NCBI GenBank assembly: GCA_963765635.1
Contig: CAVXXF010000002.1
Span: 914,411 to 978,410 of the forward strand
From: an uncultured Thermoleophilia bacterium
Lineage (GTDB): Bacteria > Actinomycetota > Thermoleophilia > UBA2241
Reading direction: 5' to 3'
DNA: 64,000 bases
Shown here one piece after another: positions 13,280 through 39,065 of the stretch (positions are counted from its first letter, which is position 1; every line of letters begins with the position of its first letter). The position numbers were made by a program, and so were the translations under genes. A model generated the notes under the pieces. It was not told the DNA's origin. It saw only the letters and a list, made by a program, of their open reading frames with translations, and searched no databases.

Positions 13280-15061
13280 CTACTCGCCGAAGGTCATCTC
13301 GCGCAGGAAGACCTCATGGAACCGGCTGTCCATGGCCAGTTCGCGGAACGTGATCTTCCTTCGGAGCTCGGCGATCCGCTCGCGCTGACGCACGTCGATC
13401 AAGGCCATCTGCGCGCCGACTCCGGCGGCGTTCCCCACGAAAGCGATGCGGTTCGTGGCGATTGGCGGAAGCAGCCCGATGGCCAGCGCGTTATCCAGAC
13501 CCAGGTAGTTGCCGAACGCCCCGGCGACGAAGACGTGACGCAGGTCCTGGGGCTCCAGGCCGGCGTTCGAGAGCAGCAGCGACCATCCGGCGGCAATCGC
13601 TCCCTTGGCCAGCTGGAGGGCCCGTACGTCGCGCTGCGTGAAGACGATCTCGCCCTGGGCGCCCTCCGCCACCAGATACTCGAGGCCGCGTGCGCCTCGG
13701 CGCACGCGTTCGTGGGCCTGCATCAGGCCCGATCTGTCGACGACCCCGGTGGCGAGTAGTCCGGCGAGGATATCGACGACCCCGGAGCCGCAGATCCCGA
13801 CCGGCTCGGCCCGGCCGATGGTCTGGATGTGCCTTGGCCGGCCATCGGTGGTGAAGTCGATGCGCTCGATGGCGCCCTCGGTAGCCTTCATGCCGCAGGT
13901 GATCTGATAGCCCTCGAAGGCCGGCCCCGATGCGCAGCTCGTCACCGATACTTTGCCGTCCTTGACCAGCGCGATCTCGGTGTTCGTGCCGATGTCGATG
14001 GCCATGGCCGGCAGGCGCTTCGCCTCGAGGTGCGTCGCCGCGATGACGGCCAGGCAGTCTGACCCAACGAAGCCGGCGATGGGCGGCATGAAGTAGATGC
14101 GCCCCTCGGGGTTCATGGTCACGCCCAGATCGGCGGCGCGCAGTGAGAGCGGTTCGTCGAGCGCCGGCGCGAACGGAGCACCCGTCAACCCCAGGGGCGA
14201 CAGCCCCAGCGCCAGATGGTGCATCGCCGTGTTGCCCACGATCACCATGTCGTACACGTGCTGCGCGGAGATCTCCTGGCGAACGCAGAGCGTCGCGAGT
14301 ACCTCGTTGATGCCCTCTGCGGCAAGACGCGTGAGCTCGAGCAGCGCTGCTTCATCCAGAGCCTCGGTGATCCGCGAGATCACGTCCTCACCGTAACGCA
14401 TCTGCGGATTCTCGATGGCCTCCTGGTCGATCAGGTGGCCTTCCTGAAGGTCCATGAGGTAGACGATGATCTTGGACGTGCCGATGTCGACGGCGGCCCC
14501 GTAGGCGCTCAGGCCGACGTGCCTCGGCTCGATGTCGATGAGGCATCCTTCGTACATCGTGGTGGTGACCGAGAAGCGGCCGTCACGCAGGGACACGGGA
14601 AGCTTGCGCAGCACCGACAGAGGCAGAGCGGTGGCGCCCAGCTCCTCCCGCACACGCTCGCGGTCGCTGCGCGCGTCCTCGAACGTGGCGCGAGGTAGCG
14701 TGGCAGCTTGCCTGCCGACCGCGGACCGGGCCTCGCCGTGCGTGAGCTTCGAGGCCGTGAGGATCTGCCGGCGACCCGCGGTCTCGCGCACCTCGACGCT
14801 GACGCGCGCCGAGAGCGGCATGGCCTGACACGCAAGGCGCCAGCCCTCGGCGCGCTGCTCAGGCGTCAGCTTGCTCAGCTCGACGCTTGTCGGAGGGCTG
14901 AGCTCTCCCGCTCCCAAACGTACCCGGCACTTGCCGCACGTCCCCCGGCCGGCGCAGTCGACAGGCAGGCCTACGGCCGCACTCGATACGGCCGCCAGCA
15001 GCGTGTCGCCGGCGGCGACCTCGACGGTGACGCCGATGGGCTCAACAAGGACCTTGAACAC
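13280..15061 (-). CDS. corrinoid activation/regeneration protein (RamA/RACo-like: N-terminal 2Fe-2S ferredoxin + ASKHA ATPase, DUF4445)
   Basis: N-terminal plant-type ferredoxin CxxGxCGxC motif (CAGRGTCGKCRV), long ATPase domain. GTG start at 15061 with RBS AAGAGG. Divergent from mtmB. Confidence 0.75.
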   Translation of the reverse strand: MFKVLVEPIGVTVEVAAGDTLLAAVSSAAVGLPVDCAGRGTCGKCRVRLGAGELSPPTSVELSKLTPEQRAEGWRLACQAMPLSARVSVEVRETAGRRQILTASKLTHGEARSAVGRQAATLPRATFEDARSDRERVREELGATALPLSVLRKLPVSLRDGRFSVTTTMYEGCLIDIEPRHVGLSAYGAAVDIGTSKIIVYLMDLQEGHLIDQEAIENPQMRYGEDVISRITEALDEAALLELTRLAAEGINEVLATLCVRQEISAQHVYDMVIVGNTAMHHLALGLSPLGLTGAPFAPALDEPLSLRAADLGVTMNPEGRIYFMPPIAGFVGSDCLAVIAATHLEAKRLPAMAIDIGTNTEIALVKDGKVSVTSCASGPAFEGYQITCGMKATEGAIERIDFTTDGRPRHIQTIGRAEPVGICGSGVVDILAGLLATGVVDRSGLMQAHERVRRGARGLEYLVAEGAQGEIVFTQRDVRALQLAKGAIAAGWSLLLSNAGLEPQDLRHVFVAGAFGNYLGLDNALAIGLLPPIATNRIAFVGNAAGVGAQMALIDVRQRERIAELRRKITFRELAMDSRFHEVFLREMTFGE

Positions 15062-15437: not shown

Positions 15438-16847
15438 ATGGCTGGACCTGGGACCAAAGCCCAGCGCGAGCGCATGTCGGTCTTCGAGGCGTACGAGAGG
15501 GCCCGCAAGGGGCCAAAGGTCGATGAGGCGGTCTGGAACTTCGAGACCATCCCGCAGACGGCCACACGCCTCAAGGAGAAGTACGGGATCAAGATGGACA
15601 AGAGCGTCATGGTCCCCACTGATCCCGAGATGATGAAGAAGCTCTATCAGGCCGGTCTCGAGATGCTCGTCGAATGCGGCGTGTACTGCATCTCCACCGG
15701 ACGCGTCATCAAGTGGACCGAAGAAGAGGTCCTTCTCAACCTCGCCACAGCGCCGAAGGAATGCGTGATCGGCGAGGGACTCCACTCCCGCCGAATGTTC
15801 CCGCGCTCGCACAAAGACACGCGTCCGCCGCTCGTCCAGGGCGGCCCCACTGGCGCGCCCTGCAGCGAAGAGCACTTCTTCGGCATCCACGAGTCATACG
15901 TCAAAGAGGGTATCGTCGACTGCATCGTCGACGGGGTGCTCTCCACGGTCAACGGCTATAACCCGGCTCCGGACACCCCGTGGGAGGTCCTCGCCGGTCG
16001 CCAGGAGATCATGATGGTCCGCATGGCGCAAGCCAAGTGCGGCCGCCTGGGGATGGGTTTGTAGGGCCCAGAGACCACTCTGAACGCTGCTGCCACGATC
16101 TCTCAGGATTTCGTGGGCGGCATGCGGAAATCAGACAACCACGAAGTCTCGCAGTTGAATGAGCTGAAGTGCGACATAGGCGCGTTGACCTTCACTTCTC
16201 ATTACAATCTCGCTGCCGACGTCGTGATGGTCGAGCAGATGCCAATCTTCGGTGGTTTTGCCGGTGGTCTCGAGGAGACGACCATCGTCAACGTCGCCAC
16301 GCATCTCAACTCTTTCGTCACGTTCGGTGGTACTTGGCACCTTGATGGTCCGGTGCACATGCGCTGGGGGATCACGACGACCAGGGAGGCCCTGGCCATC
16401 GCCGGTCACGCCATCATGGCGGTCAACTCCGTCTGGCCGAGCCTCATGAGCGGCAATCAGTACTACACGATGGCCGGTCCGTGTACGGTCATGTGCCTGC
16501 TGGAGACCGCCGCCCAGGCGATCACCGACACCTCCAGTGGTCGCGAGATCATGTCCGGCGTCGCCGCCGCCAAGGGCGTCATCACCGACAAGACCACAGG
16601 CATGGAGGCGCGGTTCATGGGCGAGTGCGCTCACGCCGTGGCCGGCATGCCTACCCAGCAGACCAACGAGATCCTCGATGCCCTCGTCAAGATGTACGAG
16701 GGCGACTACAAGACCGCCGACCAAGGCAAGTTCTACCCAGAGTGCTACGACACGGTCAAAGTCGTCCCGACCGACGAGTACCTCGAGGTCTACGACAAGG
16801 CCTGCGCCGCCATGAAGGGTCTCGGCGTCAACTACAAGCTGTGGTAG
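15438..16847 (+). CDS. mtmB: monomethylamine:corrinoid methyltransferase with in-frame UAG (predicted pyrrolysine) at 16062-16064
   Basis: The two track ORFs (15438-16064 and 16113-16847) are in the same frame, separated only by TAG. The flanks GRLGMGL*GPETTLN align to the Methanosarcina MtmB pyrrolysine site (GRPGMGV-O-GPETSLS). Strong identity elsewhere (KLYQAGLEMLVECGVYC, HEVSQLNELK). Confidence 0.8.
16062..16064 (+). other. in-frame amber codon in mtmB, predicted pyrrolysine
   Basis: TAG sits at the conserved pyrrolysine position, and the reading frame is conserved across it. Confidence 0.75.
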
Positions 16848-16895
16848 AAGGAGTCCGGACAGTGACCACGCCGAGTTCAAGGAGGCTGTTGGGAA

Positions 16896-17543
16896 ATGGG
16901 AAATGAGGCGTTCTACAAAGAGGCGATCGACTCTCTCGTGAACCACGACAAGGTCGTGGCAGAAGACGTGGCCAAGCGTGCCATTGCTGCCGGCGTCAGC
17001 CCGCAGGAGATCATGCAGAACGGGTTCGTCGTTGGCATCCGCCAGGTCGGTGACCAGTTCGACGAGGGCGAGGTCTACCTGCCCGAGCTCATGCTGGCGG
17101 CGGCGGCGATGGAAGCCGCGATGGCGATCTGCAACGCAGCTCTGCCCGAGGGCGAGAGCGAGACGCGTGGCGTCGTCGTCATCGGCACCGTCGAAGGCGA
17201 CGTCCACGACATCGGCAAGGCCATCGTCTGCGCGTATCTGCGGGCGAACGGCTACGACGTTCACGACCTCGGTCGCGACGTGCCGGTGGATGCGTTCGTC
17301 GACAAGGCCGAGGAGGTCAACGCCGACATTATCGGCGCCAGCGCTCTGCTCACGGCGACCATGCGCAAGCAGGCCGAGATCCTGGCCGAGCTCGACGACC
17401 GGGGCATCCGCGACAAGTACAAGTTCGTGGTCGGCGGCGCGCCGTGTACGCAGGAGTACGCGGACTCCATCGGCGCCGACGCCTACGCCGCGGACGCCAG
17501 CGACGGCGTCAAGAAGATCGAGAAGATGCTGGGCATCAAGTAA
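16896..17543 (+). CDS. mtmC: monomethylamine corrinoid protein (B12-binding)
   Basis: DxHxxG cobalamin-binding motif (GDVHDIGK), MtmC-like N-terminal helical domain. RBS GGAGG. Confidence 0.8.
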   Translation: MGNEAFYKEAIDSLVNHDKVVAEDVAKRAIAAGVSPQEIMQNGFVVGIRQVGDQFDEGEVYLPELMLAAAAMEAAMAICNAALPEGESETRGVVVIGTVEGDVHDIGKAIVCAYLRANGYDVHDLGRDVPVDAFVDKAEEVNADIIGASALLTATMRKQAEILAELDDRGIRDKYKFVVGGAPCTQEYADSIGADAYAADASDGVKKIEKMLGIK

Positions 17544-18797: not shown

Positions 18798-18986
18798 ATG
18801 GTATGGATCAATTACGCCGCCTGGGCGCTGTCCATCCTTTTCCTGGGGTGGACGATCGTCGACGCATTCCGCATTGAGACCACCTACGACCATGACCTCC
18901 TCGTCAGTTCCGTCGAGGGTGAGATCGAGAAGGAGATCCTCGATCACGCGCACCCGGCAACTCCACCGGCCCAGTCGGGCGACTGA
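18798..18986 (+). CDS. 62-aa single-TM protein
   Basis: ATG 6 nt after the previous stop. Its stop overlaps the start of the permease (TGATG). Confidence 0.35.
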   Translation: MVWINYAAWALSILFLGWTIVDAFRIETTYDHDLLVSSVEGEIEKEILDHAHPATPPAQSGD

Positions 18987-20404
18987 TGGCCACCGAGCAA
19001 GTGGCCGTTCCGTCCGGCGCGGCCGCTCAGCCACAGCGCCTCAGCCTGCTTCGTGTGCTCGGGCCCATGCACGTTTGGGCTCTCGGCGTCGGCATCGTGC
19101 TCGTCGGCGAGTTCATGGGCTGGAACTTCACCGTGGCCAAAGGCGGCGTCTTCGGCGCCCTCGTGGCCTGCTGGTTCTCCGGCATTCTCTACTCCTGCGT
19201 GGCCATGATCGACTCCGAAGTGAGCTCCACCGTGGCCTCGGCAGGCGGGCAGTACGCCCAGGCCAAGCACATCCTCGGCCCTCTCGCGGCCTTCAACATC
19301 GCGCTGTTCATCATCTTCGAGTACTGCATGCTTGCGGCCGGCGACGCCCTCGTCATCGGAGCCATCGTCAACAGCCTCGACCCGGCTCTCAGCCCGGTGG
19401 CGTTCGTGGTGCTCTCGATTGCGTTTCTGGCGTGGCTGAACTATCGGGGCGTGCACACCACATTGACGTTCAACTTCGTCATCACGGCCCTCGCCTTCAT
19501 CACGATCCTCGTGCTGATCGTCGGCGCGGAGTTCTGGAACCCCGGCCACATCACGCAAACTCAGGCGCTGTTCGCGCAGCCTCCAGGCGGCGTCGATCCC
19601 AAGATGCCGTACGGCTGGCTGGGCATCCTCGCCGCGCTGCAGTTCGGCATCTGGTACTACCTCGGCATCGAGGGCACCTGTCAGACGGCCGAAGAGTGTC
19701 GCTCAGCGCCGCGGGCGTTGCCGGTCGGTACCATGTCCGGCCTCATCACTCTGCTGGTGGCCGCCACGCTCACCTGGTACATCTGCACCGCCCTGGTCAA
19801 CTGGATCACGCTGGGCGAGTCGCTCTACCCGCTCTACGACGCGGCCGTCAACACCGGCAAGGACTACTTGAAGGTCATCCTGTGGATCGGCACGGTGCTC
19901 AGTTGTCTCGCATCCGCCAACGGCTGCATCAACGACGCCTCACGGGCGTGGTTCGCCATGGGCCGCGACCAGTTCATCCCCCGGTGGTTTGGCGGTGTGC
20001 ACCCACGCTACAAGACGCCGTACCGCGCGATCCTTTTCCTCGTCCCGATCATGATCGCGTTCGGCTACACCGGGCTGCTCGACCAGGTGATCACCTTCTC
20101 GATCATCTCCGGCTGCCTGATCTACCTCATCATGCCTCTCAACATGATCCGCTTTCGCCGTCTGTACCCGATGGACTCGATCAGACGCGGCTATGTGTCC
20201 CCGTTCCATCCGCTGCCGTCGTACGTGCTGTTCGCCTTCGTGTCGTTGACGTTCCTGGCCATATACTTCGGCTTCTGGCGCAACCTCGTGGCAGCGATCG
20301 TGTTCTACAGCCTCTGCTCGGTGTGGTTCGTCCTTCACCGTTTCAAGTACGTGGACCGTGCCAAGCTCTATACGATGCCGTGGCCACGGCCCAAGGGCTA
20401 CTGA
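18986..20404 (+). CDS. APC-superfamily permease (ethanolamine/amine permease-like), candidate methylamine transporter
   Basis: 12-TM APC architecture. N-terminal LRVLGPMHVWALGVGIVLVGEFMGWNF resembles the EAT family. Confidence 0.7.
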   Translation: MATEQVAVPSGAAAQPQRLSLLRVLGPMHVWALGVGIVLVGEFMGWNFTVAKGGVFGALVACWFSGILYSCVAMIDSEVSSTVASAGGQYAQAKHILGPLAAFNIALFIIFEYCMLAAGDALVIGAIVNSLDPALSPVAFVVLSIAFLAWLNYRGVHTTLTFNFVITALAFITILVLIVGAEFWNPGHITQTQALFAQPPGGVDPKMPYGWLGILAALQFGIWYYLGIEGTCQTAEECRSAPRALPVGTMSGLITLLVAATLTWYICTALVNWITLGESLYPLYDAAVNTGKDYLKVILWIGTVLSCLASANGCINDASRAWFAMGRDQFIPRWFGGVHPRYKTPYRAILFLVPIMIAFGYTGLLDQVITFSIISGCLIYLIMPLNMIRFRRLYPMDSIRRGYVSPFHPLPSYVLFAFVSLTFLAIYFGFWRNLVAAIVFYSLCSVWFVLHRFKYVDRAKLYTMPWPRPKGY

Positions 20405-22646: not shown

Positions 22647-24044
22647 GTGAGCAATGTATGGACCCGAATGGGTGACGGCCAGGCCGTCGTGATGACGAGC
22701 GACGAACTTCGCAAGGACATCATCGAGGCGTCCGAGGATGCCGCCGACAAGGGCAAAGTCCCGATTCTCGAAGACAACGAGATCGACAAGATGATGGAGA
22801 TCTTCACCGCTCCATGGCGTGTCATCGGTGTCGAGCCCGGCCACGAAGTACCCCTCACCAAGGATGAAACGGCGTGCACGCTGATCTCTTCGCAGCTGTC
22901 GAGCGGCTCGCACCTGCCCATCAGTCGCGAAGCCGCCGTCGAGATCTTCGAGCGCGTCTTCGCCTTCGACACCATGGAGCTGGGCTGGATCGACTACTCG
23001 TTCAAGCAGGCCAAGCCGATGGTCTCGCTCGACCAGGTCTCCATCGAGCGCCTTCTGGCGACCACGGTGTTCCCCATTCTCTACGGCGCGATGCCGAACA
23101 TGGGGCTCTACTACACGCCTGACGGGCCCTTCACCAACCCGGCCGACCTTCTCGGCATGATGAAGGTCGAAGAGGCGCGGGAGATGCAGATGAAGGCCTC
23201 CGAGCTCTGCGAGGAGGACATGATCTTCGTCTGCAAGCGTATGGCCGAGATCGGCGCCGACGGCATCGACTTCGACACCACCGCTTCGGCCGGTGACGCC
23301 GACTTCCTGGCCGTGCTCAAGACGGTCGAGGAGCTCAAGAAGACCACCAACCTCGGCATCGAGGTCGGCATGTCCGGCGAGTTCATCCTGGGCATGCACG
23401 GCGAGGTGGAGTACAAGGGCACGAAGCTCGCCGGCCTGTGGCCGCACCAGCAGCTCAAGGTCGTTGAGCAGGCGGGCGCGGACATGTTCGGTCCTGTCGT
23501 GAACACCAAGACCAACAAGTCGGCGGCCTGGAACGTCGCCCGCGCCGTGACCATGGTGAAGGAAGTGTGCAAGCAGGCCACGATCCCGATCCACGCCAAC
23601 GTGGGAATGGGCGTGGGTGGCACGCCGATGTTCGAGACGCCGCCTGTCGACGCTCTCAGCCGCGCAAGCGTCGCGATGGTCGAGATCGCCAAAGTCGACG
23701 GGTTGTAGGTGGGTGTGGGCGATCCCTTCGGGATGTCCCTTACGCACGCGATTGCCTCCGGAATGGGTGGCATTCGTACCGCTGGAGATCTGGTGGCGCG
23801 GATGCAGCTCAACTACAAGATGAGACTCCCTGAGGCCAAGAAGTACGTGGCGGACAAGCTTCACGTGAGTGCTTTTGACCTGTCGGACTCCACCGTGATG
23901 CGCCAACTGCGGGAAGAGCTTGACATCGGCCTCATCGAGGCCGTCCCCGGTATGGCCAAAGGCTTGGCGGCGAAGGACCACATCGCCAGGCTCCTGGACA
24001 TCAAGATCGATTGCGTGGAGAAGCTCAAGGAGAAGCTCGCCTGA
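22647..24044 (+). CDS. mtbB: dimethylamine:corrinoid methyltransferase with in-frame UAG (predicted pyrrolysine) at 23706-23708
   Basis: The ORFs 22647-23708 and 23709-24044 share a frame across [21 protein letters not shown] aligns to the MtbB pyrrolysine site (VEIAGVDGI-O-IGVGDPLGM). Strong identity ([25 protein letters not shown]). Confidence 0.8.
23706..23708 (+). other. in-frame amber codon in mtbB, predicted pyrrolysine
   Basis: TAG at the conserved position with frame continuity. Confidence 0.75.
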
Positions 24045-24105: not shown

Positions 24106-24750
24106 ATGGCAAATGAAGACTTCTACACCGAAGCGATGGAGGCCATCCGCGCCTGCGACAGGGTCAAGGCCACCGATGTGGCTACCAGGGCTCTCGCGGC
24201 GGGCGTCGCTCCGGACGACCTGCTCAAGCTGGGCTTCATCCCCGGCATCGCGAAGATGGGCGACCTCTTCGAGCGCGGCGAGGTGTTCCTCCCCGAGCTC
24301 GTGCTCGCCGCGGACGCCATGACCGGCGCCGCCGAGGTGTGCAACGCGGCGCTGCCCGAGGGTGAGGGTGGCAAGAAAGCGGTCGTCGTCATCGGGACCG
24401 TGCAGGGCGACGTCCACGATATCGGCAAGACCATCGTCGTCGCCTTCCTGCGTGCCAACGGCTACGACGTCACCGATCTCGGCCGCGATATCTCCGGTGA
24501 CAAGTTCATCGCCGCAGCTGAGGAGCTCAACGCCGACGTCATCGGCATGAGCGCGCTGCTCACCACGACCATGCGTGAGCAGACCCGCGTGATCGAGGCC
24601 CTCAAGGCCGCCGGTGTACGCGACAAATACAAGGTCATCGTCGGCGGCGGCGCCTGCACGGAGCAGTGGGCCACCAAGATCGAGGCCGATGCCTACGCAG
24701 AAGACGCCAACGACGGCGTGCGCAAGATCAACCAGCTCACGGGCAATTGA
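24106..24750 (+). CDS. mtbC: dimethylamine corrinoid protein (B12-binding)
   Basis: GDVHDIGK motif; paralogous to mtmC. Confidence 0.8.
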   Translation: MANEDFYTEAMEAIRACDRVKATDVATRALAAGVAPDDLLKLGFIPGIAKMGDLFERGEVFLPELVLAADAMTGAAEVCNAALPEGEGGKKAVVVIGTVQGDVHDIGKTIVVAFLRANGYDVTDLGRDISGDKFIAAAEELNADVIGMSALLTTTMREQTRVIEALKAAGVRDKYKVIVGGGACTEQWATKIEADAYAEDANDGVRKINQLTGN

Positions 24751-25006
24751 CCGCACGCTCGTAGACGCTCAACTCGGCGGCGCGACCGGGCCGGATCCGC
24801 AACGCGGGCCCGGCCGTGCCGCCGAAGTAGGGCTCTTCAAGTCGCCGAGCCTGGCCTGAGCGCAGCACGCGGCCGGATAGCTGCGCCCGGAGCTCAGATC
24901 GGGGCTGCGAGTGGCGAGGTCATGACACCCCCTCCGCCTCGCAGCCCCGATTTAGTGAAGACCGGTCGAATGCCGGCCTGTGTCTGCCAGAGACGTCCCG
25001 AAAGCT

Positions 25007-25462
25007 CTATTCCTTGGCCGGGACCACCAAGACCGGTACGTGGGCCGTATGCAGCAGTGCCTGGGTCGTGGATCCGAGCACGGTGGTCGCCTCAGAGGCG
25101 CCGGCGCCTTTGGCGCCGACGACGATCATGTCGGCATCGACCTCACGCGCCACGGTGACCACGATCGCCGCCGGATTCCCGCGGCTGCAGGCGGTGCCCG
25201 CCTCGATCCCGACGGCCCGCACCGTCTGAGCCGCCTCCTCGAGATCGGCGTTGATCTTGTCCTCCATCTGGTCCCAATGCTTCTCCATCTCCATCGCCGC
25301 CTGCCACAACGGCTCATAGCCGAGCCAGCCAGGGCGACGGTCGTGGCCGCAGGTGATGAAGATCTTGCTCCCTGGCCTGTCCTTGGCCAAGCCGATGGCC
25401 GCGTCCAAGGCGTTCTTGGCCGCCTTGGAGCCGTCATATCCGACCACGAAGGTGTTCGCCAT
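25007..25462 (-). CDS. universal stress protein UspA
   Basis: UspA signature. Confidence 0.75.
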   Translation of the reverse strand: MANTFVVGYDGSKAAKNALDAAIGLAKDRPGSKIFITCGHDRRPGWLGYEPLWQAAMEMEKHWDQMEDKINADLEEAAQTVRAVGIEAGTACSRGNPAAIVVTVAREVDADMIVVGAKGAGASEATTVLGSTTQALLHTAHVPVLVVPAKE

Positions 25463-25614
25463 GCCGCACGCTCCTCTCTCAGTGCAATTGACCGGCCGGC
25501 GCGCCGCCGACCGGAAAGGACAGCCTCAGCCGTGCCCATCGATTCGGGTGGGGCATGCGTCCGCGACAAGGTCGCGGACGCATGCCCCGGACAGGCCTGC
25601 GGCCATCCTGTTGA

Positions 25615-27225
25615 TCAGTACGTCTCACGCACCCCAGCGAAGAACACTTCGTGGTCGTCCACCGGCTCCGCGGAGACGGCGTCGAGCTGCTCTTGCGACG
25701 GCGGCTTGGTGAGGAAGGTCACGACTACGAGCGTGACGAAGGCGAGGATCACGCCGATGACCGCGAAGCCATAGCCGGTATCGATCAGCGCCTGCGGAGC
25801 CGGGTAGTCGTACTCCAGCACGTACTTCTCGACGAGGTAGAACACCAGCGTCCCGACCCCGCCGACCAGAGACGCGGTAAACGCGGCCGCGTAGCCGACC
25901 CGCTTCCAGAACATGGCCAGCACCGCCACGGCGACGCCGGCCGAGAGCAGGCCGCTGGAGAAGTAGTAGGCGTCCCACAGGGCGTTCGGCAGCGTGTCGA
26001 TGAGGAACGTCACGCCGAGGGTCACGATAACGGTGACCAGCGACGCGATCCGGCTGAAGAACACGATGCGCGCGTCGCCCCAGCCGCGCTTGCGGTAGAC
26101 GAGCGGCTGCAGGACATCGTAGCTGGCGTTCAGGGCCGACACGTTGGTGAACGTGGCGATGGTGGCGATGGCGTGGGCCGCCAGCAGACAGAACGTGATC
26201 ACCAGCAGCCACGGCGGGAAGTACTCGGTGAGGAACACCGGCATGAGCTGGTAGGGGTCGCCTCCGAGCAGATTCTGGAACTGCTCGGGCGGATAGAGCA
26301 CGAGGCCAAAGAGGCCGATGAGGCTCGGCAGCGCGAGGATCCAGATGATGTTGTAGACGAGGTTGGCCCAGATGCCGTTCCGTGCCGCGCGAGTGCTGGT
26401 GGCCGACTGTGCCTTGAGCCACCAGTCTTCCTCGATCATCCACCCGGGAAGGAGTGCTATGAGCGAGAAGAAAGCGAACGGTATGCCGAGACTGAACAAG
26501 GTCATGGCGCTTTGGCCCGGTGCGTTGCCCGGCGGGACCACATTCGAGAGGTAATTGAGCATGCTCTGCCCCTCGGGCAGATGGTTGAACGACTCATAGG
26601 TCATCACGATGGTGACGATGGTGACGAACGCCACGCCCATGGCGAACTGCAGCAGGTTGGCACTGATGACCGCGTGGAAGCCGCCCAGCGCCATGTACAC
26701 CGCGACCGGCACCGCGAAGACGATGTACAACACCCAGGGTTCGACGCCAAATGAAGGCGCGAGGTACTGCGACACCGTCCAGATCTCGGCGGCCGACCAG
26801 ATGACGAAGGCGATGATGTTGAACGGGCTGACCAGCACGCGGAGACCTAGCCCGAAGCGCTGCTGCAGGCATTGCGGCTGCGAGATCGCCTTGAAGCGTC
26901 GCACGTTGGGCACCAGGATGACCATGGTGAACAGCAGCACGGTCCATGGGACGACCATGGACCAGATGCCGCCGATGCCATACATGTAGGTATTGGCCAT
27001 GGCCCAGGTGATGAAGCCGATCAGGAACCAGCCGGCGGCGATGGCGCAGCCGACGACCAGGGCGCTGTTGCTGCGTTTGGCGATCCAGTAGTCGTCGTGC
27101 TCGTCGGTGGCTGTCTTCTGCTTCTTCTGGAAGTTGTAGGTCCAGACGCCGATCCCGATGAGCACGAACATGTACGGGATGACGATCGCCCAGTACCAGA
27201 TAGGACTGGCTGCAGCTATGATCAT
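25615..27225 (-). CDS. sodium:solute symporter (SSS) family transporter
   Basis: 13-TM SSS-like architecture, 536 aa. Confidence 0.7.
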   Translation of the reverse strand: MIIAAASPIWYWAIVIPYMFVLIGIGVWTYNFQKKQKTATDEHDDYWIAKRSNSALVVGCAIAAGWFLIGFITWAMANTYMYGIGGIWSMVVPWTVLLFTMVILVPNVRRFKAISQPQCLQQRFGLGLRVLVSPFNIIAFVIWSAAEIWTVSQYLAPSFGVEPWVLYIVFAVPVAVYMALGGFHAVISANLLQFAMGVAFVTIVTIVMTYESFNHLPEGQSMLNYLSNVVPPGNAPGQSAMTLFSLGIPFAFFSLIALLPGWMIEEDWWLKAQSATSTRAARNGIWANLVYNIIWILALPSLIGLFGLVLYPPEQFQNLLGGDPYQLMPVFLTEYFPPWLLVITFCLLAAHAIATIATFTNVSALNASYDVLQPLVYRKRGWGDARIVFFSRIASLVTVIVTLGVTFLIDTLPNALWDAYYFSSGLLSAGVAVAVLAMFWKRVGYAAAFTASLVGGVGTLVFYLVEKYVLEYDYPAPQALIDTGYGFAVIGVILAFVTLVVVTFLTKPPSQEQLDAVSAEPVDDHEVFFAGVRETY

Positions 27226-27623
27226 GTATTCCCCCTACTCAGTGTGGACCCGACCACGACAGACCCGGAGAGGTATACCGGCCTCCGTCCGGTGTCGAGG
27301 CTCTGAACAGCATCTGCGCGATGCTGGAGACCGGTCATCCGCTCGATCAGCCAAGGGCATCACCTCCCCAGCCTAGGGGGGATGCCCAAGGATCCGGCGA
27401 AGAGCACGGACCTGTCACCACGGGCAGGCCAAAGGCCCTCGATGAAGCATCTGGCGACCGTTCAGACAAAGCCAAGTCCGCGCCTTCCCTCCGTGGCGAG
27501 ACAGCTCCACTCTTGAGTGGAGAGTCCCGCCTGTATTTAGTGCAAGCTAATGCGCCTTCGCGGCCGCGTCAATAGGCAGCGCACCGACCATCGACAGTCC
27601 GGGTCGTCTCGCTCCACGACGAT

Positions 27624-28721: not shown

Positions 28722-29048
28722 TCAACCGCCGGAGATCGCCACGAGCGCGTCTTTGGGGAACGCCAGCTCCGCGGCCACGCGCATCGCCTTCAGCGCCGAA
28801 GCCGGCACGATGCAGTCGGTGCAGCAGCGGCCCTCACGGCCCGCGGCGAGCACGGTGTTCTCGCTGCGGGGATCGATCTCCTTGTAGGCGTCGAGTGGCG
28901 ACCGTTCGGCGAGCAGCGCCGCAAACCGGGTCACGTTGTCGCAGTCGGTCTCGAGAACGATGCTCACGGCACGGCCGTCACTCGTCTCGGCGCGCGCGAG
29001 CGTACGAAAGCCACAGATGCCGGGCTGGATATCCGCCTCTGCTTGCAT
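28722..29048 (-). CDS. hypothetical 108-aa Cys-containing protein (C12, C36, CCxxC)
   Basis: ORF with an 18-bp perfect palindrome 35 bp upstream; no family recognised. Confidence 0.35.
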   Translation of the reverse strand: MQAEADIQPGICGFRTLARAETSDGRAVSIVLETDCDNVTRFAALLAERSPLDAYKEIDPRSENTVLAAGREGRCCTDCIVPASALKAMRVAAELAFPKDALVAISGG

Positions 29049-29082
29049 GGGATGGGCCTTTCTGACGTTTTCCTAACTCACT

Positions 29083-29329: not shown

Positions 29330-30805
29330 TTGATCCGAAGTCAACGGTCAGGCATCAATCACCAGGGCGGCATCGGCATCGATGTCTTCTCCGCAGACGA
29401 GCGGCAGGCCATCCACTGGGGCACCGTCGAGGTGCTCGAGAGGGCCGGCATCTGGGTGGAGGATGACGAGGCCCTCGACCTGTTCGCCGACGGCGGCTGC
29501 AAGGTCGACCGCTCCACGCGCAAGGTCAGGATCCCGCAGCACGTGCTCGAGGAGTGCATCGGCTGGGCGCCCTCCACGGTCACGCTCTGCGGCCGCACGC
29601 CCGACAAGGACCTCATCATGGAGGGCCGGCGCGTCGCCTTCACCAACTTCGCCGAGGGCGTCAAGGCCGTGGATCCCTGGGACGGCAAGCTGCGCCCCAC
29701 CACGAAGAAGGACGTCGGCGATCTCGCCCGCCTCGTCGACGCGCTCGACGACATCGAGGTTTACACGATCGCCGTGACGGCTACCGACGTGCCGCCCGAG
29801 GTCGCCGAGGCACATCTCATCGAGCAGTCGCTGCTCAACACCACGAAGCCGATCTGCAGCCTGGCCCTCGGCCACCACGGCGCTCGCCTGCACATCGACG
29901 CCACGGCCGCCGTGGCCGGCGGCCACGACAAGCTGGCCGAGCGCCCCATGCTCCTCTTCCTCTCCTGCCCGGTCAGCCCGCTCAAGCTCATGGGCGAGTT
30001 CACCGGCTGCATCATCGAGGCGGCCCGCGCCCATCAGGTCGCGATGCCCCTCTCCATGGCCATGTCCGGCGGCTCCGCCCCGGTCACCCTGGCCGGCACC
30101 ATGGTCACGCATAACGCCGAGGTGCTGAGCGGCATCGTCCTCGCCCAGCTCGCCGAGAAGGGCGCCAAGTGCGTCTACGGCACCTCCACCACCGCCTTCG
30201 ACCTGCAGCGCGCTGCTGCGACCGTGGGCACCCCCGAGCTCGGCATGATCAGCGCGGCCGTCGCGGAGATGGGCCGCTACTACGGCCTGCCGACCTACGG
30301 CGCCGGGTTGTAGAGCGATTCCAAGCTCGGCGGCGACGCGCAGTGCGCCCACGAGAAGACCATCACCGGCCTCCTGCCAGCGTTGGGAGGGCTCAACCTG
30401 ATCTACGGAGCCGGGATGATCGAGTCGGGCGTCACCATCGACTACGCAACGCTCGTCATGGACAACGATATCGCGCGCATCTGTAAGTTCATCCTTCGTG
30501 GCATCCCCACGAACGACGCGACGCTGATGGTGGATGAGATCGTCGAAGTGGGGTCCGAGGAGGACTTCCTTTCGAGGATGAGCACCCTGAAGCTGATGCG
30601 TGAACACCAGTCCAAGGCCGGGAACATCGACCGCCGCGTGCGCGAAGAGTGGGAGATGGACGGCAGCACCGATATGTACACCCGCTGCGGCGAGGTGGCC
30701 AAGGAGCTCGTCGCCGGCCACAAGGTCGCGGAGCTCCCGAGCGAGATCGTCGATCAGATCCACGCCATCGTCGTTAAGGCCGAGAAGGATGCCGGAGTCG
30801 CCTGA
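29330..30805 (+). CDS. mttB: trimethylamine:corrinoid methyltransferase with in-frame UAG (predicted pyrrolysine) at 30311-30313
   Basis: The ORFs 29330-30313 and 30383-30805 share a frame across TAG. LPTYGAGL*SDSKLGGDAQCAHEKT aligns to the MttB pyrrolysine site ([24 protein letters not shown]). Possible TTG start after AAAGGAGGA. Confidence 0.8.
30311..30313 (+). other. in-frame amber codon in mttB, predicted pyrrolysine
   Basis: TAG at the conserved position with frame continuity. Confidence 0.75.
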
Positions 30806-30853: not shown

Positions 30854-31483
30854 ATGGCAGATTTTGAGACTCTCAAGAAGATGATCATCGACGGTGCCGA
30901 CGGCGCCACCGCCGAGACGCAGAAGCTGATCGACGGCGGTGCCTCGGCCCGTGACATCCTCGACCAGGCCCTGTTGCCCGGTATGGACGTTGTCGGCGCC
31001 GAGATGAAGAGCGGCGACAAGTTCATCCCCGAGGTGCTGCTCAGCGCTCGCACCATGCAGGCCTGCCTCGACCTCATCAAGCCGCACCTCGCGGCCGGTG
31101 AGACGATGAGCCTCGGCACGGTCGTGATCGGCACCGTCGAGGGCGACATGCACGATATCGGCAAGAACCTCGCCGCCATGCTGCTCTCGGGCGCCGGCTT
31201 CGAGGTCGTCAATCTGGGCAAGGGCGTCACGCCGGCCGACTTCGTGACCGCGGTCAAGGAGAACAAGGCGACGATCCTCGGCATGAGCGGCTTGCTCACG
31301 ACGACGATCCCGAAGATGCCCGAGACCATAGCCGCGCTCAAGGCCGCCGGTCTGCGCGACAGCGTCAAGGTCATCGTCGGCGGCGCGCCCGTGAGCGTCG
31401 AGTGGGCCGACGAGATCGGCGCCGACGCCTATGCGGCCAACGCCTCGCTGGGCGTCGAGAAGTGCAAGGAGCTGGTCTCCTAG
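30854..31483 (+). CDS. mttC: trimethylamine corrinoid protein (B12-binding)
   Basis: GDMHDIGK motif. TAG stop with an in-frame TGA four codons later. Confidence 0.8.
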   Translation: MADFETLKKMIIDGADGATAETQKLIDGGASARDILDQALLPGMDVVGAEMKSGDKFIPEVLLSARTMQACLDLIKPHLAAGETMSLGTVVIGTVEGDMHDIGKNLAAMLLSGAGFEVVNLGKGVTPADFVTAVKENKATILGMSGLLTTTIPKMPETIAALKAAGLRDSVKVIVGGAPVSVEWADEIGADAYAANASLGVEKCKELVS

Positions 31484-31708: not shown

Positions 31709-31887
31709 GGTGTAGAAGCGGCTTGTCGCGTTCGCGGACGCGGCAGTGAGGGGGGAGCCAGAGGATCACTCATGTGGGGCTGTTCGCGCCGAGCCCAAGT
31801 CGCCGGAAGTCCGGGGCCCCGGCATGCGCGGGCGCTGACGTCAGAACGCACCTTGTACCCTTAATAATCGCAGAAGGGGGCAACGGT

Positions 31888-33540
31888 ATGGAGGATCAAG
31901 ACCGCTCTCAGTCAGACATGATTCGGTCTGACGTTTCGGATAAGTACCTCGCCGACTACGGCGACGAGTACAAGCAATCACGCTTCCAAACCAACATGCG
32001 CCGAGACCTCAGCTGGGTCGGCGCCTTCTTCGTGGCCGCCGGCGTGCCGGCGCTGATCCTGTTCTCGATGGGTGGCATCTCCGCCGGCACCGGGCCGGTC
32101 GCCGTACTTGTATGGACGCTTTCAGTGCTGGTCGGCTTCGTCGACGCCTTCATCTACGCCGAGATCGCCGGGCTCCACCCGAAGAAGTCGGGTGGCACCG
32201 CGGTGCACGGCGCGACTGCCTGGATCCGCTACATCAGGCCCGCGGCGCCGATCTCGCTGTGGTGCAACTGGCTGGCATGGACACCGGTGCTGGCGCTCGG
32301 CTCCGGTCTCTGCGCGGGGTATCTGCTCTCTGTCTTCTTCGCCCCCGACGCCACCATCAACACGTGGTCGGTCACGATCGCCAATCTCGATTTCTTGAAG
32401 GATGGGCTGACGCTGCGCATCAACGCGGTATTCATCATCGGCGCCGTCATCATGCTCGCCGTGTGGAATATCCAGCACTACGGCATCCTGCGCACCGCGC
32501 GCGTCCAGATGATCCTCACGATCGGGGCGATGACGCCCTTGATCCTGCTGACGGTCATCCCGCTGATCACCGGCGACGTGGTGGCGAGCAACTTCTCGCC
32601 GTTCGTGCCGGTCAACGGCTCGTGGAACCTCGACGGCTGGACGGCGTTCCTGGGAGGCTTCTTCATCGCCGCTTGGTCCGCCTACGCCTTCGAGACGGCC
32701 ATCTGCTACATGAGCGAGTTCAAGAACCCCGGGCGCGACCAGGCCAAGGCCATTCTCTGGTCCGGCGTGTTCTGCATCTTGTGCTACACCGTGATCCCGT
32801 TCGTTTGGCAGGGCGTCCTCGGCACCGACTACATGCTCAAGCCCGAGATCTACTCGGGGGCCGGCGTTCCTCAGGGTTTCGCGGACATGTTCAACGCCGG
32901 CGCAACCTTCACCAAGTTCTGCGCGGTCGCCATGTTCTTCACGGTGATGCTGTCCGTGATGACGGCCATGTCGGGCTCGTCACGGACCCTCTTCCAGGGC
33001 GGTCAGGACGGCTGGCTGCCCAAGTACCTGGCGCACCTCAACAACCACAAGGTGCCGACCTACGCGATGTGGACCGACCTCATCTTCAACCTGTTCCTGC
33101 TGCTGATGTCGGACTACGTCTTCGTGCTCGCCGTCTCCAACTGCAACTACATGATCTTCAACTTCCTCAACCTGAACGCGGGCTGGATTCACCGCAGGGA
33201 CAACCCGCGCGTGCCGCGGCCCTTCAAGGCGCCGCTGCCGCTCTTCGTGCTTGGCACCTGCTTCGCCTACATGAACGTGTTCCTTCTGGGAGCCGGCGCG
33301 AACTACTGGGGCCAGGGCACGCTGCTCATGGGCTGGATCTCGGCCCTGATCGCCCTCCCGGTCTTCTACTACCGACACTACGTCACCGACAAGGGCAAGT
33401 TCCCGTCGCACATGTTCGACGACCTCATCCCCGAGGGCGAGACCGAACTGGGGCCCAAAAGGTGCGGCGTCCTGCCGTACGTCGCCGTCGCCGGCGGCCT
33501 GGCGTGCATGACCCTCGGCTACGTCATCTTCTGGGTCTGA
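31888..33540 (+). CDS. APC-superfamily permease (second copy), candidate methylamine transporter
   Basis: 12-TM APC architecture. ATG MEDQDRSQ... after a G-rich RBS; the longer upstream extension was rejected. Confidence 0.7.
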   Translation: MEDQDRSQSDMIRSDVSDKYLADYGDEYKQSRFQTNMRRDLSWVGAFFVAAGVPALILFSMGGISAGTGPVAVLVWTLSVLVGFVDAFIYAEIAGLHPKKSGGTAVHGATAWIRYIRPAAPISLWCNWLAWTPVLALGSGLCAGYLLSVFFAPDATINTWSVTIANLDFLKDGLTLRINAVFIIGAVIMLAVWNIQHYGILRTARVQMILTIGAMTPLILLTVIPLITGDVVASNFSPFVPVNGSWNLDGWTAFLGGFFIAAWSAYAFETAICYMSEFKNPGRDQAKAILWSGVFCILCYTVIPFVWQGVLGTDYMLKPEIYSGAGVPQGFADMFNAGATFTKFCAVAMFFTVMLSVMTAMSGSSRTLFQGGQDGWLPKYLAHLNNHKVPTYAMWTDLIFNLFLLLMSDYVFVLAVSNCNYMIFNFLNLNAGWIHRRDNPRVPRPFKAPLPLFVLGTCFAYMNVFLLGAGANYWGQGTLLMGWISALIALPVFYYRHYVTDKGKFPSHMFDDLIPEGETELGPKRCGVLPYVAVAGGLACMTLGYVIFWV

Positions 33541-34271: not shown

Positions 34272-34805
34272 TCAGCTCACATCCTCCTCGTCTGGCTCGT
34301 CGCCCTCGTCGTCCAGCAACCCGCGCGCCTCGAGCTTCTCGAGTGCCTCGCGCGCCAGCTTGCGGACGTCGCGGCGAGCGTCCGCAGCCAGCTCGCGCAA
34401 CCCATCCACGGCCGGGCTTCCGATCTTGTCGAGAATATCGAACACAAGGACGTGGTAGAGGTACCTCGCGTTCTCCTCGGGGTTGCCGTACGCGTCGTAC
34501 TCGCGAATCGAGGACACCAGAGGCGTGACCGCGCGGGTGCCCAGTCTCGTGAGAGCCCGTCCGGCCTCGTTGAGGAGCCGGATGCTTCGCGTCGGAAGTC
34601 GCTTCTTGCGGCCGACGCTGTGAGACTCGGCCCACATCGCCGTCTCGTAGAGGTACTCCACCACGGCAGACACGTCCTTGCGCAGCACCGACATGGCCGC
34701 GCGGCTCTCCGCAGGAGCCTTGTCGTGCAAGGCCCAGTAGACGAGTCGCGGCATGTCACCATCGCGCCGCATCTTCTCGAAGTCGGGCGGGCTGAAGATC
34801 CCCAT
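34272..34805 (-). CDS. HEAT-repeat protein (second copy)
   Basis: Helical repeats, acidic C-terminus. ATG at 34805 after AGAGG. Confidence 0.45.
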   Translation of the reverse strand: MGIFSPPDFEKMRRDGDMPRLVYWALHDKAPAESRAAMSVLRKDVSAVVEYLYETAMWAESHSVGRKKRLPTRSIRLLNEAGRALTRLGTRAVTPLVSSIREYDAYGNPEENARYLYHVLVFDILDKIGSPAVDGLRELAADARRDVRKLAREALEKLEARGLLDDEGDEPDEEDVS

Positions 34806-35019
34806 GCATCGGCCTCTGTCCGCGGGAGGTTCTGTGCCGCAGTCTAGCGGTCGGGCCGCACGTGCGCCAGCACGATTCATTCCCCACATGCCAGGCCGCC
34901 GCTATACTAGACGAGCAGCCCGCGTGGGCGCACAGACGCCGCCGGGGGCGACTGCGGCACCCGTCTCATCGCTGACAGTCGGGCCCGGTCGATTCGCCAA
35001 CTGGAAAGCGAGGTCAACG

Positions 35020-35806
35020 ATGTCAGCAGATCTCAAAGAGCAGCTGCGCTCCGCGGCGGCCGATCACGGGTTCGAGTTCTTCGGCGTCGTCGACGCCGGC
35101 AAGCTCGCGGAAGTCCCCTTCCCGCCGAACCGCTGCCTCGACGTCCCCAGCGGCTTTCTGCCCGAGGCGAAGAGCGTCATCGTGATGGGCATGCACATCT
35201 GGGACGTCATGCAGAACGCGGTGGTCACCTCGGTGCTCCCGGACGGCGCCATCCCCTTCGACGACGTCCCCGGATCCCAGTACTACAACATGTACTACGA
35301 GATCACCGAGGCTCGCGCGCATCGCTTCGCCGAGGCCGTGCGCGACGCCGGCTACAAAACCGCGGTCACGCATTTCGTCCACGCCAAGGCGGCCGCCACG
35401 CTCGCCGGTCTCGGCTGGATCGGCAAGCAGACGCTGTGCATCACGCCGCAACTGGGTCCACACGTGCGCTGGGCGTGTGTGGTCACCGATGCCGTGTTGC
35501 CCTACGACGAGCCCTTCACCGAGGACCTCTGCGGCGAGTGCGAGCTCTGCATCAAGGCGTGTCCGACGCAGGCCATCATTCCCGGGCCCCTCCCAGGGAG
35601 TGGAGCCCGGCAAGAAGGTCGACTTCTGGAAGTGCATCGTCCCGCAGGAGATGCTGGCCGAGCCCAACAAGGCGTGGCAGAAGGTGGCTGGCCACTACTC
35701 GCCGCGCGGCAGCCACGAGTGCCTCATCTGCCTGGATGCCTGCCCCATCGGCAGGGAAGAGCACGAGCGCCGCGTCAAGGCCTATGGCTTGAGGCCGAGC
35801 GGCTGA
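35020..35806 (+). pseudogene. QueG-like (DUF1730 + 2x[4Fe-4S]) Fe-S protein, +1 frameshift near 35585-35600 (pseudogene or indel error)
   Basis: The first ferredoxin motif CGECELCIKACPTQAI lies in frame 1. The second, CLICLDACPIGRE, continues in frame 2 (track ORF 35477-35806). There is a C/G homopolymer run at the junction. Confidence 0.5.
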
Positions 35807-35873
35807 CGGCGCCACGGCGGTCGCCGACCGGCGACGAACAGCCCGGCGGCACTCCTCAGAGGCTCCGGCGAAT

Positions 35874-35903
35874 TGACTTTCTGAGCGCCAATCACCTACT
35901 ATC
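35874..35903 (+). promoter_or_regulatory. candidate sigma70-like promoter TTGACT, N18, TACTAT in the rny leader region
   Basis: Hexamers read directly, about 270 bp upstream of the rny ATG. Confidence 0.4.
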
Positions 35904-36114
35904 CTCTTGCGCGACGTGTGTGCGTGCCTAGTGTATTTCACTCTCGCTCTTGTATAGCGATACGCAAGGCGCTTCGGCGCCCATTGGCTGAAACCATCGA
36001 ACCAGGGGTCCACTGTGAGAGTTTTGGGAGGTTTTACGACCTGATCGTTGTCCCGACCCCTGGGCGCTGACACAGCTGCAGATCGGTATCTCTGGCACGG
36101 GCGAGTGTGGCACT

Positions 36115-37738: not shown

Positions 37739-39065
37739 ATGCGCACTTACTACCTGCGCTCGTTCGGCTGCCAGATGAACGCCCACGACGCCGAGCGCAT
37801 CCGCGCGCTGCTCGAGGCCGAAGGCCTGGAGCGCGCGGATGCTCCCGACGGCGCCGACGTGCTCGTCTACAACACCTGCACCGTGCGCCAGAGCGCCGAC
37901 GAGCGCCTGGCCGGGCATCTGGGCACCGCCGCCCGGCTCAAGCGCGAGGACGCCGGCCGCATCGTCCTCGTCACCGGCTGCCTGCCGCAGGCCGAGCAGG
38001 ACGACTTCTTCCGGCGTTTCCCCTTCGTCGACGGCGCCCTGGGGCCGCAGAACCTGCACCGCCTGCCCGAGCTGCTCGCGGCGGCCGTGGCGCCGGCGCG
38101 GCCGGCCGGCCGGCCGCCGGGCTTCTTCGCCGACGGCGCGGCCATGAGCGGCGACCTGGCGGCGCGCCGCGAGCGCCCGTTTCAGGCCTGGGTGCAGATC
38201 ATGTCCGGCTGCACCAACTTCTGCTCGTACTGCATCGTGCCCCAGGTGCGTGGCCCCGAGCGCAGTCGCGACGTCCACGCCGTGGTGGCCGAGGTCCGTG
38301 CGCTCGTCGCCGACGGCGTGCGCGAGGTCACCCTGCTCGGCCAGAACGTCAACGCCTACGGCCTCGATCTGCAGCTGGGACGGGCGCGACGGAGCGCCGG
38401 ACTTCCCGGCGCTGCTGCGCGCCCTCGACGCCATCCCGGGCCTCGCCCGCGTGCGCTTCATGACCTCGCACCCCAAGGATCTCTCGGACGACCTCATCCG
38501 GACGATCGCCGAGCTGCCCAGCGTGTGCGAGCACGTGCATCTCCCGGCGCAGGCCGGCTCGGACCGTGTGCTGGCGGCGATGGGCCGCGGCTACACCGCG
38601 GCCGCTTACCTCGCGCGCGTGCAAGCCTTGCGCGCGGCCGTGCCCGACGTGAGCGTCACCACGGACCTCATCGCCGGTTTCCCCGGCGAGAGCGACGACG
38701 ACTTCGCACAGACGCTCGAGCTGGTGCGCGCGGCGCGGTTCGACGCGGCCTTCACGTTCGTGTTCTCGCCGCGGCGCGGCACGGCCGCCGCCGAGCTCCC
38801 GCGTCAGATCGCCGCGACGGTCAAGCGCGAGCGCGTCGAGCGTCTCATCAGCCTGACGCAGGAGCTGGCGCTTGACTCGCGGCGGCGCTGGGTGGGCCGG
38901 CGCGCCGAGGTCCTGCTCGAGGGTCCCAGCCGCGACGGCAAGGGTCTGCGGGGCCGCACGCGCCAGAACGTGACGGCGAACGTCTCCGGGTCGCTGGAAC
39001 CCGGTGCTATAGTGGAGATCGAGGTCACCGGCGCGACCTCGACGACCCTTCGCGGAAGGGCCTGA
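37739..39065 (+). pseudogene. miaB: tRNA-2-methylthio-N6-dimethylallyladenosine synthase MiaB with a single-base frameshift near 38378-38390 (possibly an indel error)
   Basis: The N-terminal 2/3 (MTTase N, CxxxCxxC) is in frame 1 (37739-38875 track ORF). The conserved C-terminal part (RVRFMTSHP, TRAM) continues in frame 2 (38250-39065). Confidence 0.7.

Follow-up and report, generated by a model that had tools for sequence, protein, structure and literature searches.

A monomethylamine methyltransferase gene with an in-frame UAG at the pyrrolysine position, probably decoded as pyrrolysine, in a methylamine island of an uncultured Thermoleophilia bacterium

Here we analyzed a 64,000-nucleotide (nt) stretch of DNA from an uncultured Thermoleophilia bacterium (GenBank assembly GCA_963765635.1, contig CAVXXF010000002.1, positions 914,411 to 978,410; hereafter the window, with positions counted from its first letter), and focused on mtmB, a gene for monomethylamine:corrinoid methyltransferase that contains an in-frame UAG codon. 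The gene lies at 15438-16847 on the forward strand and forms a single frame of 470 codons, or 469 residues when the internal TAG is counted as a residue. It starts with an ATG at 15438, just downstream of a Shine-Dalgarno sequence (GGAAGGAGGAG), and ends with a TAG at 16845-16847. Its sole internal stop is the TAG at 16062-16064 (codon 209), which is flanked in the translation by CGRLGMGL and GPETTLN, exactly as the initial annotation of this DNA had read these flanks (GRLGMGL and GPETTLN). That annotation had also described two open reading frames (ORFs) in the same frame, parted only by this TAG. The sequence, the ORF list and the translation agree on this point, except that the second ORF (244 codons) begins with a GTG at 16113, 16 codons past the TAG and not directly after it. 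No other stop occurs between the TAG and this GTG, and thus the two open frames are contiguous. The GC content at third codon positions (GC3) was 0.81 upstream of the TAG and 0.83 downstream of it, a strong coding signature like that of neighbouring genes (0.84-0.94), and mtmB as well as the dimethylamine and trimethylamine methyltransferase genes mtbB and mttB described below share the genome's own GC3 (0.84-0.92).

The joined product matched the Pfam MtmB family (PF05369) from end to end (652.3 bits, E 5e-196; residues 14-463 on profile positions 2-449 of 450), which bears out the earlier proposal of a full-length methyltransferase of about 469 residues. The best matches among solved structures were those of Methanosarcina barkeri MtmB1 (1L2Q/1NTH and 1TV2-4; E ~4e-157), with 236 of 452 residues (52%) identical to 1L2Q. 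MtmB1 is the protein in which pyrrolysine (Pyl) was discovered, and Pyl is the catalytic residue of MtmB. In the alignment with 1L2Q/1TV2, codon 209 fell within a gap-free block on chain residue 202, which is pyrrolysine, so that the suggested correspondence between the TAG and Pyl-202 holds. By each criterion that can be checked by sequence, the gene belongs to the MtmB family. The tryptic peptide predicted across the UAG is LGMGL-O-GPETTLNAAATISQDFVGGMR, where O is Pyl, with a residue mass of about 237.15 Da.

Related contigs were collected by exact look-up of the N-terminal MtmB fragment and of MtmC, the product of the next gene. Their nt identity to the window was 97.7% over 11.6 kb for L002, 94.3% over 19.4 kb for L001, and 84-88% for L126 and L127, and proteins at least 90% identical to those of the window were named as belonging to a Thermoleophilia, Actinomycetota or Actinomycetes bacterium. 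The species of the window itself was found in samples ERZ25039459 and ERZ25039461. The codon opposite the mtmB TAG was TAG in all four contigs as well as in L026, an Actinomycetota homologue with 70% nt identity, and the same TAG was present in the independent assemblies ERZ25039459, ERZ25039461 and ERZ25039554 (two contigs), from three Danish ENA samples, and JGI 3300064029. The initial annotation had regarded a TAG at a non-conserved site as an argument against a Pyl gene; we found the aligned codon to be TAG in 20 of 20 mtmB homologues, and likewise in 20 of 20 mtbB and six of six mttB homologues, from loci of Bacillota, Desulfobacterota, Actinomycetota, Methanosarcinales and Methanomassiliicoccales.

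The residues that follow the Pyl position differ among lineages. In the lineage of the window, MtmB has Gly-Pro (16065-16070), like archaeal MtmB, whereas the other bacterial homologues examined, including the Actinomycetota protein of L026, have Gly-Asn; overall identity is nonetheless higher to the bacterial proteins.

Substitution patterns were compared on the two sides of the TAG. Between the window and L126, there were 52 synonymous and 20 non-synonymous changes upstream (ratio of the proportions of non-synonymous and synonymous changes, pN/pS, 0.11) and 64 synonymous and 41 non-synonymous changes downstream (pN/pS 0.19). The downstream part differed from that of L001 by 12 synonymous changes and one non-synonymous change, and the comparison with L002 gave 12 synonymous and no non-synonymous changes on either side. 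Judged from these counts, both halves of mtmB are under purifying selection. In mtbB and mttB, the changes on either side of the TAG were mostly synonymous too. Relative to L126, the 16 codons that separate the TAG from the earliest potential restart codon carried seven synonymous changes and only one replacement; this stretch is thus conserved at the protein level and appears to be translated, which means that the TAG must be read through.

mtmB belongs to an island at approximately 13.3-35.9 kb, bordered by cinA-recA-recX on one side and by rny-miaB-miaA-dapF-dapL-hflX on the other. Starting 49 nt downstream of mtmB, mtmC (16896-17543, forward strand) codes for the cognate corrinoid protein of 215 amino acids (PF02607 and PF02310), with the same gene call in related contigs. 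Divergent from mtmB, a gene on the reverse strand (13280-15061) encodes a RamA/RACo-type corrinoid reductive activase of 593 amino acids, with Fer2 and the RACo linker, middle and C-terminal ASKHA domains; the 593-amino-acid call is also made in L001 and L002. Farther along the forward strand lie mtbB for dimethylamine methyltransferase (22647-24044; PF09505 over its full length, E 7.8e-197), with an in-frame TAG at 23706-23708, followed by the corrinoid protein gene mtbC (24106-24750; PF02607 and PF02310), and mttB for trimethylamine methyltransferase (29330-30805; PF06253, E 6.3e-86), with an in-frame TAG at 30311-30313, followed by the corrinoid protein gene mttC (30854-31483; PF02607 and PF02310). 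The island also holds two forward-strand permease genes that probably serve uptake, one for an amino-acid/amine permease and putatively for methylamine (18986-20404; PF00324/PF13520) and the other after mttBC (31774-33540; PF13520, E 1e-65), as well as a sodium:solute symporter gene and three Usp genes. When all TAGs of the window were scanned in six frames, coding-like sequence on both sides was observed only at 16062, 23706 and 30311, apart from an antisense artefact at 32478. The coincidence of such sites with the three methylamine methyltransferase genes is far beyond chance. Taken with the conservation of the TAG and with the selection acting on the downstream half, which favor the initial reading of a Pyl gene over a pseudogene, mtmB is very probably a functional Pyl-encoding gene.

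Some observations weigh against this interpretation. Within the window, ARAGORN and Rfam detected no pylT (tRNA-Pro only), and Pfam and NCBIfam scans of about 60 ORFs, essentially all plausible ones, revealed no pylS, pylB, pylC or pylD. A PylSc of the window's own genome was not found among the PylSc clusters listed in searches with a profile and with the PylSc of a relative. TAG is not avoided as a terminator, either: it ends recA, rny, dapB, dapL, miaA and the activase gene among others, and read-through would lengthen recA, rny, dapB, dapL and the activase by 79-251 codons. Finally, the stretch that starts at the mtmB TAG (16062-16161) resembles the Rfam element PYLIS_1 (RF01982) with a score of 49.4 bits (E 1.7e-9), below the gathering score of 70.

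The pyl genes were found in a relative. ERZ25039554 contig_15812 (618,423 nt; 84-88% nt identity to the island of the window) carries both sets of genes: the orthologous split mtmB, mtmC, split mtbB and mtbC, with TAG, at 427-447 kb (L126), and pylSc, pylSn, pylB, pylC, pylD and pylT at 30-50 kb (L125), so that about 390 kb lie between the pyl cluster and the mtmB/mtbB island. At L125 (10001-17650), one strand holds pylSc, genes for a corrinoid protein and a radical-SAM protein, pylSn and a Germane-domain gene, and the other strand holds pylB-pylC-pylD-pylT; this layout, with pylT after pylD, is unusual. All five Pyl proteins scored above the curated NCBIfam cut-offs (TIGR02367, TIGR03912, TIGR03911, TIGR03909 and TIGR03910; 316.7 against 178, 127.7 against 51, 196.7 against 150, 339.5 against 248, and 437 against 348), and ARAGORN called a tRNA-Pyl(CUA) at 14390-14462 of this locus, as well as tRNA-Pyl in L026, L019 and L064. 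Much of the L125 pyl neighbourhood is shared by four further relatives (L128-L131, with PylSc P0369, P0472, P0466 and P0401) from samples ERZ25039527 and ERZ25039500. The prediction of Pyl decoding in the organism of the window draws on this genus-level relative and on the selection described above, and its own genome would also carry the pyl genes.

We also surveyed PylSc more widely. Species genomes, one per species, were scanned with the back-translated motif CLRPMLAPxLY using CTN and CGN codons only. This gave at least 120 matches, and the 120 listed were all true PylSc; 23 of these first 120 were in metagenome-assembled genomes (MAGs) of Thermoleophilia, Actinomycetota, Actinomycetes or Coriobacteriales, a share that is inflated since the codon restriction favors high-GC genomes. 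The methylamine methyltransferase proteins at these 120 listed loci, which do not include the species of the window, were at most 65% identical to those of the window. When Desulfitobacterium hafniense PylSc was used as the query, the best 120 matches were all from Bacillota. A search of representatives at 50% identity yielded high-GC PylSc candidates, among them P0213, a Thermoleophilia-type PylSc, and profile and single-sequence searches of metagenomes brought up Thermoleophilia-type PylSc clusters in their thousands, a number of which NCBI already names 'pyrrolysine--tRNA(Pyl) ligase large subunit [Thermoleophilia bacterium]'. Judging from these searches, PylS is common in MAGs of Thermoleophilia and Actinomycetota.

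That no PylSc of the window's genome was located in these searches could mean that the gene is a recent relic, in which the methyltransferase genes are still intact but the pyl genes have been lost, so that the enzymes are no longer made at full length. The distance of about 390 kb in the relative would make an independent loss of the pyl genes possible. Against such a loss, mtmB differs from its within-species counterpart in L002 by 24 synonymous and no non-synonymous changes, the frames of all three methyltransferase genes are intact, and the related PylSc loci examined all keep the same pyl neighbourhood. We therefore consider a relic very unlikely. Another explanation would do without pyrrolysine altogether, with the UAG decoded as a standard residue by a near-cognate or suppressor tRNA, or with the two halves made separately and then assembled. 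Downstream of the TAG there are indeed a GTG (16113) and an ATG (16122), preceded by a weak AGGA, and gene callers give two MtmB fragments in every related contig. A product restarted there would lose the 16 conserved codons, including those for the GPET motif found right after Pyl in the solved structure, whereas a standard residue would not explain why TAG itself has been kept over 70-98% nt identity, given that Pyl is catalytic in MtmB; moreover, the lineage has dedicated Pyl machinery. Decoding without Pyl thus appears highly improbable, and the version with two polypeptides was rejected because of the conserved TAG and the selection across it. A pseudogene, in which a nonsense mutation has inactivated mtmB and only a 208-residue fragment or nothing useful is made, would fit the usual look of an in-frame stop, the absence of pyl genes from the window and the apparently broken miaB in the same assembly. 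We rejected it as extremely unlikely, because the stop sits precisely on the Pyl codon, where bacterial and archaeal homologues have TAG as well, purifying selection is as strong downstream as upstream of it and extends to the first 16 codons, and mtbB and mttB likewise contain a single TAG at their own Pyl sites. A sequencing or assembly error, for which the frameshift in miaB might be cited, was dismissed as having a negligible chance, since the identical TAG recurs in the separate assemblies listed above.

TAG terminates 16 of 45 window genes (36%), compared with 28 for TGA and one for TAA. Genome-wide reassignment of UAG to Pyl has recently been reported for some archaea. Such a reassignment was rejected here because of these 16 terminal TAGs and the extensions of 79-251 codons, which also imply that efficient unconditional suppression of UAG would be costly. 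Thus, as in other Pyl bacteria, UAG must be ambiguous rather than reassigned in this organism, and Pyl insertion would have to compete with termination by release factor 1 (RF1). At the end of mtmB itself, a back-up TGA (16863-16865) lies five sense codons past the terminal TAG, and read-through there would add just six residues. The median distance to a back-up stop was 26.5 codons for TAG-ended genes (n=16) and 52 codons for TGA-ended genes (n=28), although the number of genes is small.

As for the PYLIS elements, the PYLIS_1-like stretch in mtmB keeps most of the outer stem, whereas the inner stem is broken, and its minimum free energy has a z-score of -2.3. An Rfam scan at gathering thresholds reported PYLIS_2 in mtbB (23706-23805, 87.7 bits) and PYLIS_3 in mttB (30311-30413, 49.8 bits; gathering score 38), each starting from the in-frame TAG. 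All of these matches overlap conserved coding sequence, and the PYLIS_1-like signal may reflect coding conservation only.

We propose that the ribosome would read the UAG at 16062-16064 as pyrrolysine by means of a Pyl-tRNA(CUA) charged by a split synthetase (PylSn/PylSc), with PylB, PylC and PylD making pyrrolysine from lysine, and that these genes are probably encoded elsewhere in the genome, outside the window. The full-length MtmB of 469 residues would then bind monomethylamine through the Pyl side chain and hand the methyl group on to the corrinoid of MtmC in its Co(I) state, while the divergently encoded RamA/RACo-type activase would restore the oxidised corrinoid to Co(I). The mtbB/mtbC and mttB/mttC pairs of the same 22-kb island may play the same role for dimethylamine and trimethylamine, respectively, and the methyl groups would presumably enter a tetrahydrofolate-dependent one-carbon pathway. 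In other Pyl bacteria, the expression of pyl genes is induced. Such induction probably aids insertion over termination here as well, and the local codon context might also contribute.

Two further genes of the island may have a corrinoid-related accessory function, i.e., those for a DUF6951 protein (28722-29072, reverse strand) and a QueG/reductive-dehalogenase-like 4Fe-4S protein (34753-35931, forward strand). Both accompany the methyltransferases in the window and likewise in the relative L126 (19686-20648).

The codon that precedes the Pyl codon showed a bias, both in the window and at loci L126, L127, L026, L019 and L132-L251. All three Pyl codons of the window, which lie in non-homologous genes, are preceded by Gly-Leu with leucine encoded by TTG (GGT TTG TAG at 16056-16064, GGG TTG TAG at 23700-23708 and GGG TTG TAG at 30305-30313). 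TTG accounts for only 62 of the 1608 leucine codons (3.9%) in window genes, so that finding it at three of three sites has a probability of about 6e-5 if the sites are independent. The relatives keep TTG before the UAG, and the Actinomycetota loci L026 and L019 have the even rarer TTA. A metagenome scan for the context MG-x-UAG-GPET retrieved 124 sites. Among 32 high-GC3 mtmB homologues of at least 250 codons, leucine before Pyl was encoded by TTG in 21 and by CTC in one, a distant sequence, and the homologues with TTG range from 70% to 98% in nt identity to the window. At ten other conserved leucine columns of the same alignment, TTR made up only nine of 281 codons (3.2%). Where isoleucine precedes Pyl, the rare ATA prevails (43 ATA, three ATC and one ATT). 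Terminal TAGs are preceded by varied codons, none of which is TTG. The tetranucleotide CTAG is about nine-fold under-represented in the window (22 observed, 192 expected from base composition); its avoidance explains why NNC is shunned before TAG, but not why TTG is preferred over CTG.

According to a recent paper, targeted Pyl insertion has no known mechanism, and a sequence cue with broad conservation has yet to be found (PMC12626013). In the literature to which we had partial access, we did not find a description of the TTG bias before the Pyl UAG, and the observation may be new. It is a tentative and rather doubtful idea that the codon immediately before the Pyl UAG itself contributes to the signal for recoding in this high-GC clade. 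If the P-site codon, tRNA-Leu(CAA) or the U at position -3 were to favor Pyl-tRNA over RF1, it would provide a sequence cue that sets Pyl UAGs apart from those ending 36% of the genes. In this sense, TTG before the Pyl codon offers a lead on how Pyl sites might differ from stops.

Compared with M. barkeri MtmB1, the window gene is alike in its full-length PF05369 match, the UAG at the Pyl-202 position, the GPET that comes next and the cognate corrinoid gene downstream. It differs in its bacterial host of 67.5% GC, in having leucine (TTG) and not valine before Pyl, and in the synthetase of the lineage, which consists of separate PylSn and PylSc proteins as it does in bacteria; in addition, the methyl acceptor pathway presumably cannot be methanogenesis. 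With the Pyl systems of Bacillota and Desulfobacterota (D. hafniense, Acetohalobium arabaticum and Bilophila), the lineage shares the split pylSn/pylSc, pylBCD and pylT, as seen in the relative of the window, the use of UAG as a common stop, and methylamine methyltransferases as the Pyl proteins; the window MtmB is 61-65% identical to homologues from Desulfosporosinus, Selenomonas and Acetobacterium. In contrast with these systems, the phylum is Actinomycetota, mtmB, mtbB and mttB are all present, and pylSc of the relative is parted from pylBCD-pylT by the corrinoid, radical-SAM, pylSn and Germane-domain genes. PylSc of the lineage is just ~48-52% identical to that of D. hafniense.

The genus RBG-16-64-13 is placed in Thermoleophilia by GTDB. 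For a thawing permafrost mire, Ellenbogen et al. (2023) reported that Actinobacteriota MAGs express Pyl-encoding mttB and mtbB, and that RBG-16-64-13 was the methylotrophic genus with the highest activity in this phylum (PMC10805028). Of the 81 bacterial genomes bearing PylRS in the count by Guo et al. (2022), two were from Actinobacteria (PMC9630628; repeated in PMC11764691). Pyl in Actinobacteria is thus already documented and is not new here; the view of the initial annotation that a Pyl gene is unexpected in an actinobacterial genome was overstated, given these reports (PMC9630628, PMC10805028) and the 23 PylSc genes among the first 120 matches of our scan. The permafrost-mire MAGs (PMC10805028) come from the same phylum as the window and probably from the same class, their Pyl genes were likewise recognised by truncation at the amber codon, and a palsa MAG from that mire site (L065) carries a PylSc of the same clade. 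To the mttB and mtbB reported there, the window adds mtmB, with all three genes in one island between recA/recX and rny.

Our analysis contributes a well-assembled example in which all three methylamine systems share an island, together with purifying selection across the UAG, TAG stops that are not depleted, and the TTG context. It confirms that uncultured high-GC actinobacteria of a widespread lineage possess Pyl-dependent methyltransferases for all of mono-, di- and trimethylamine, and these soil and sediment bacteria are likely to consume methylamines in competition with methylotrophic methanogens. The window also offers a clear natural example of UAG with two meanings, and standard gene callers split the Pyl genes in every assembly examined.

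Outside the island, miaB (37739-39065) looks frameshifted: UPF0004 and positions 2-59 of the Radical_SAM profile were matched in the frame of 37739, and the remainder (Radical_SAM 59-166 and TRAM) in the frame of 38250, with the switch near 38370-38400. The cause is an indel in the assembly, or else miaB is a true pseudogene.

The island has undergone rearrangement between close strains. After mtbC, the opposite strand of the 94%-identical L001 (19363-20627) has a sodium:solute symporter gene that is only about 72% identical to that of the window, and the identity of L002 falls from 97.7% to about 83% beyond window position 24751 (24751-27300 against 11568-12880 of L002).

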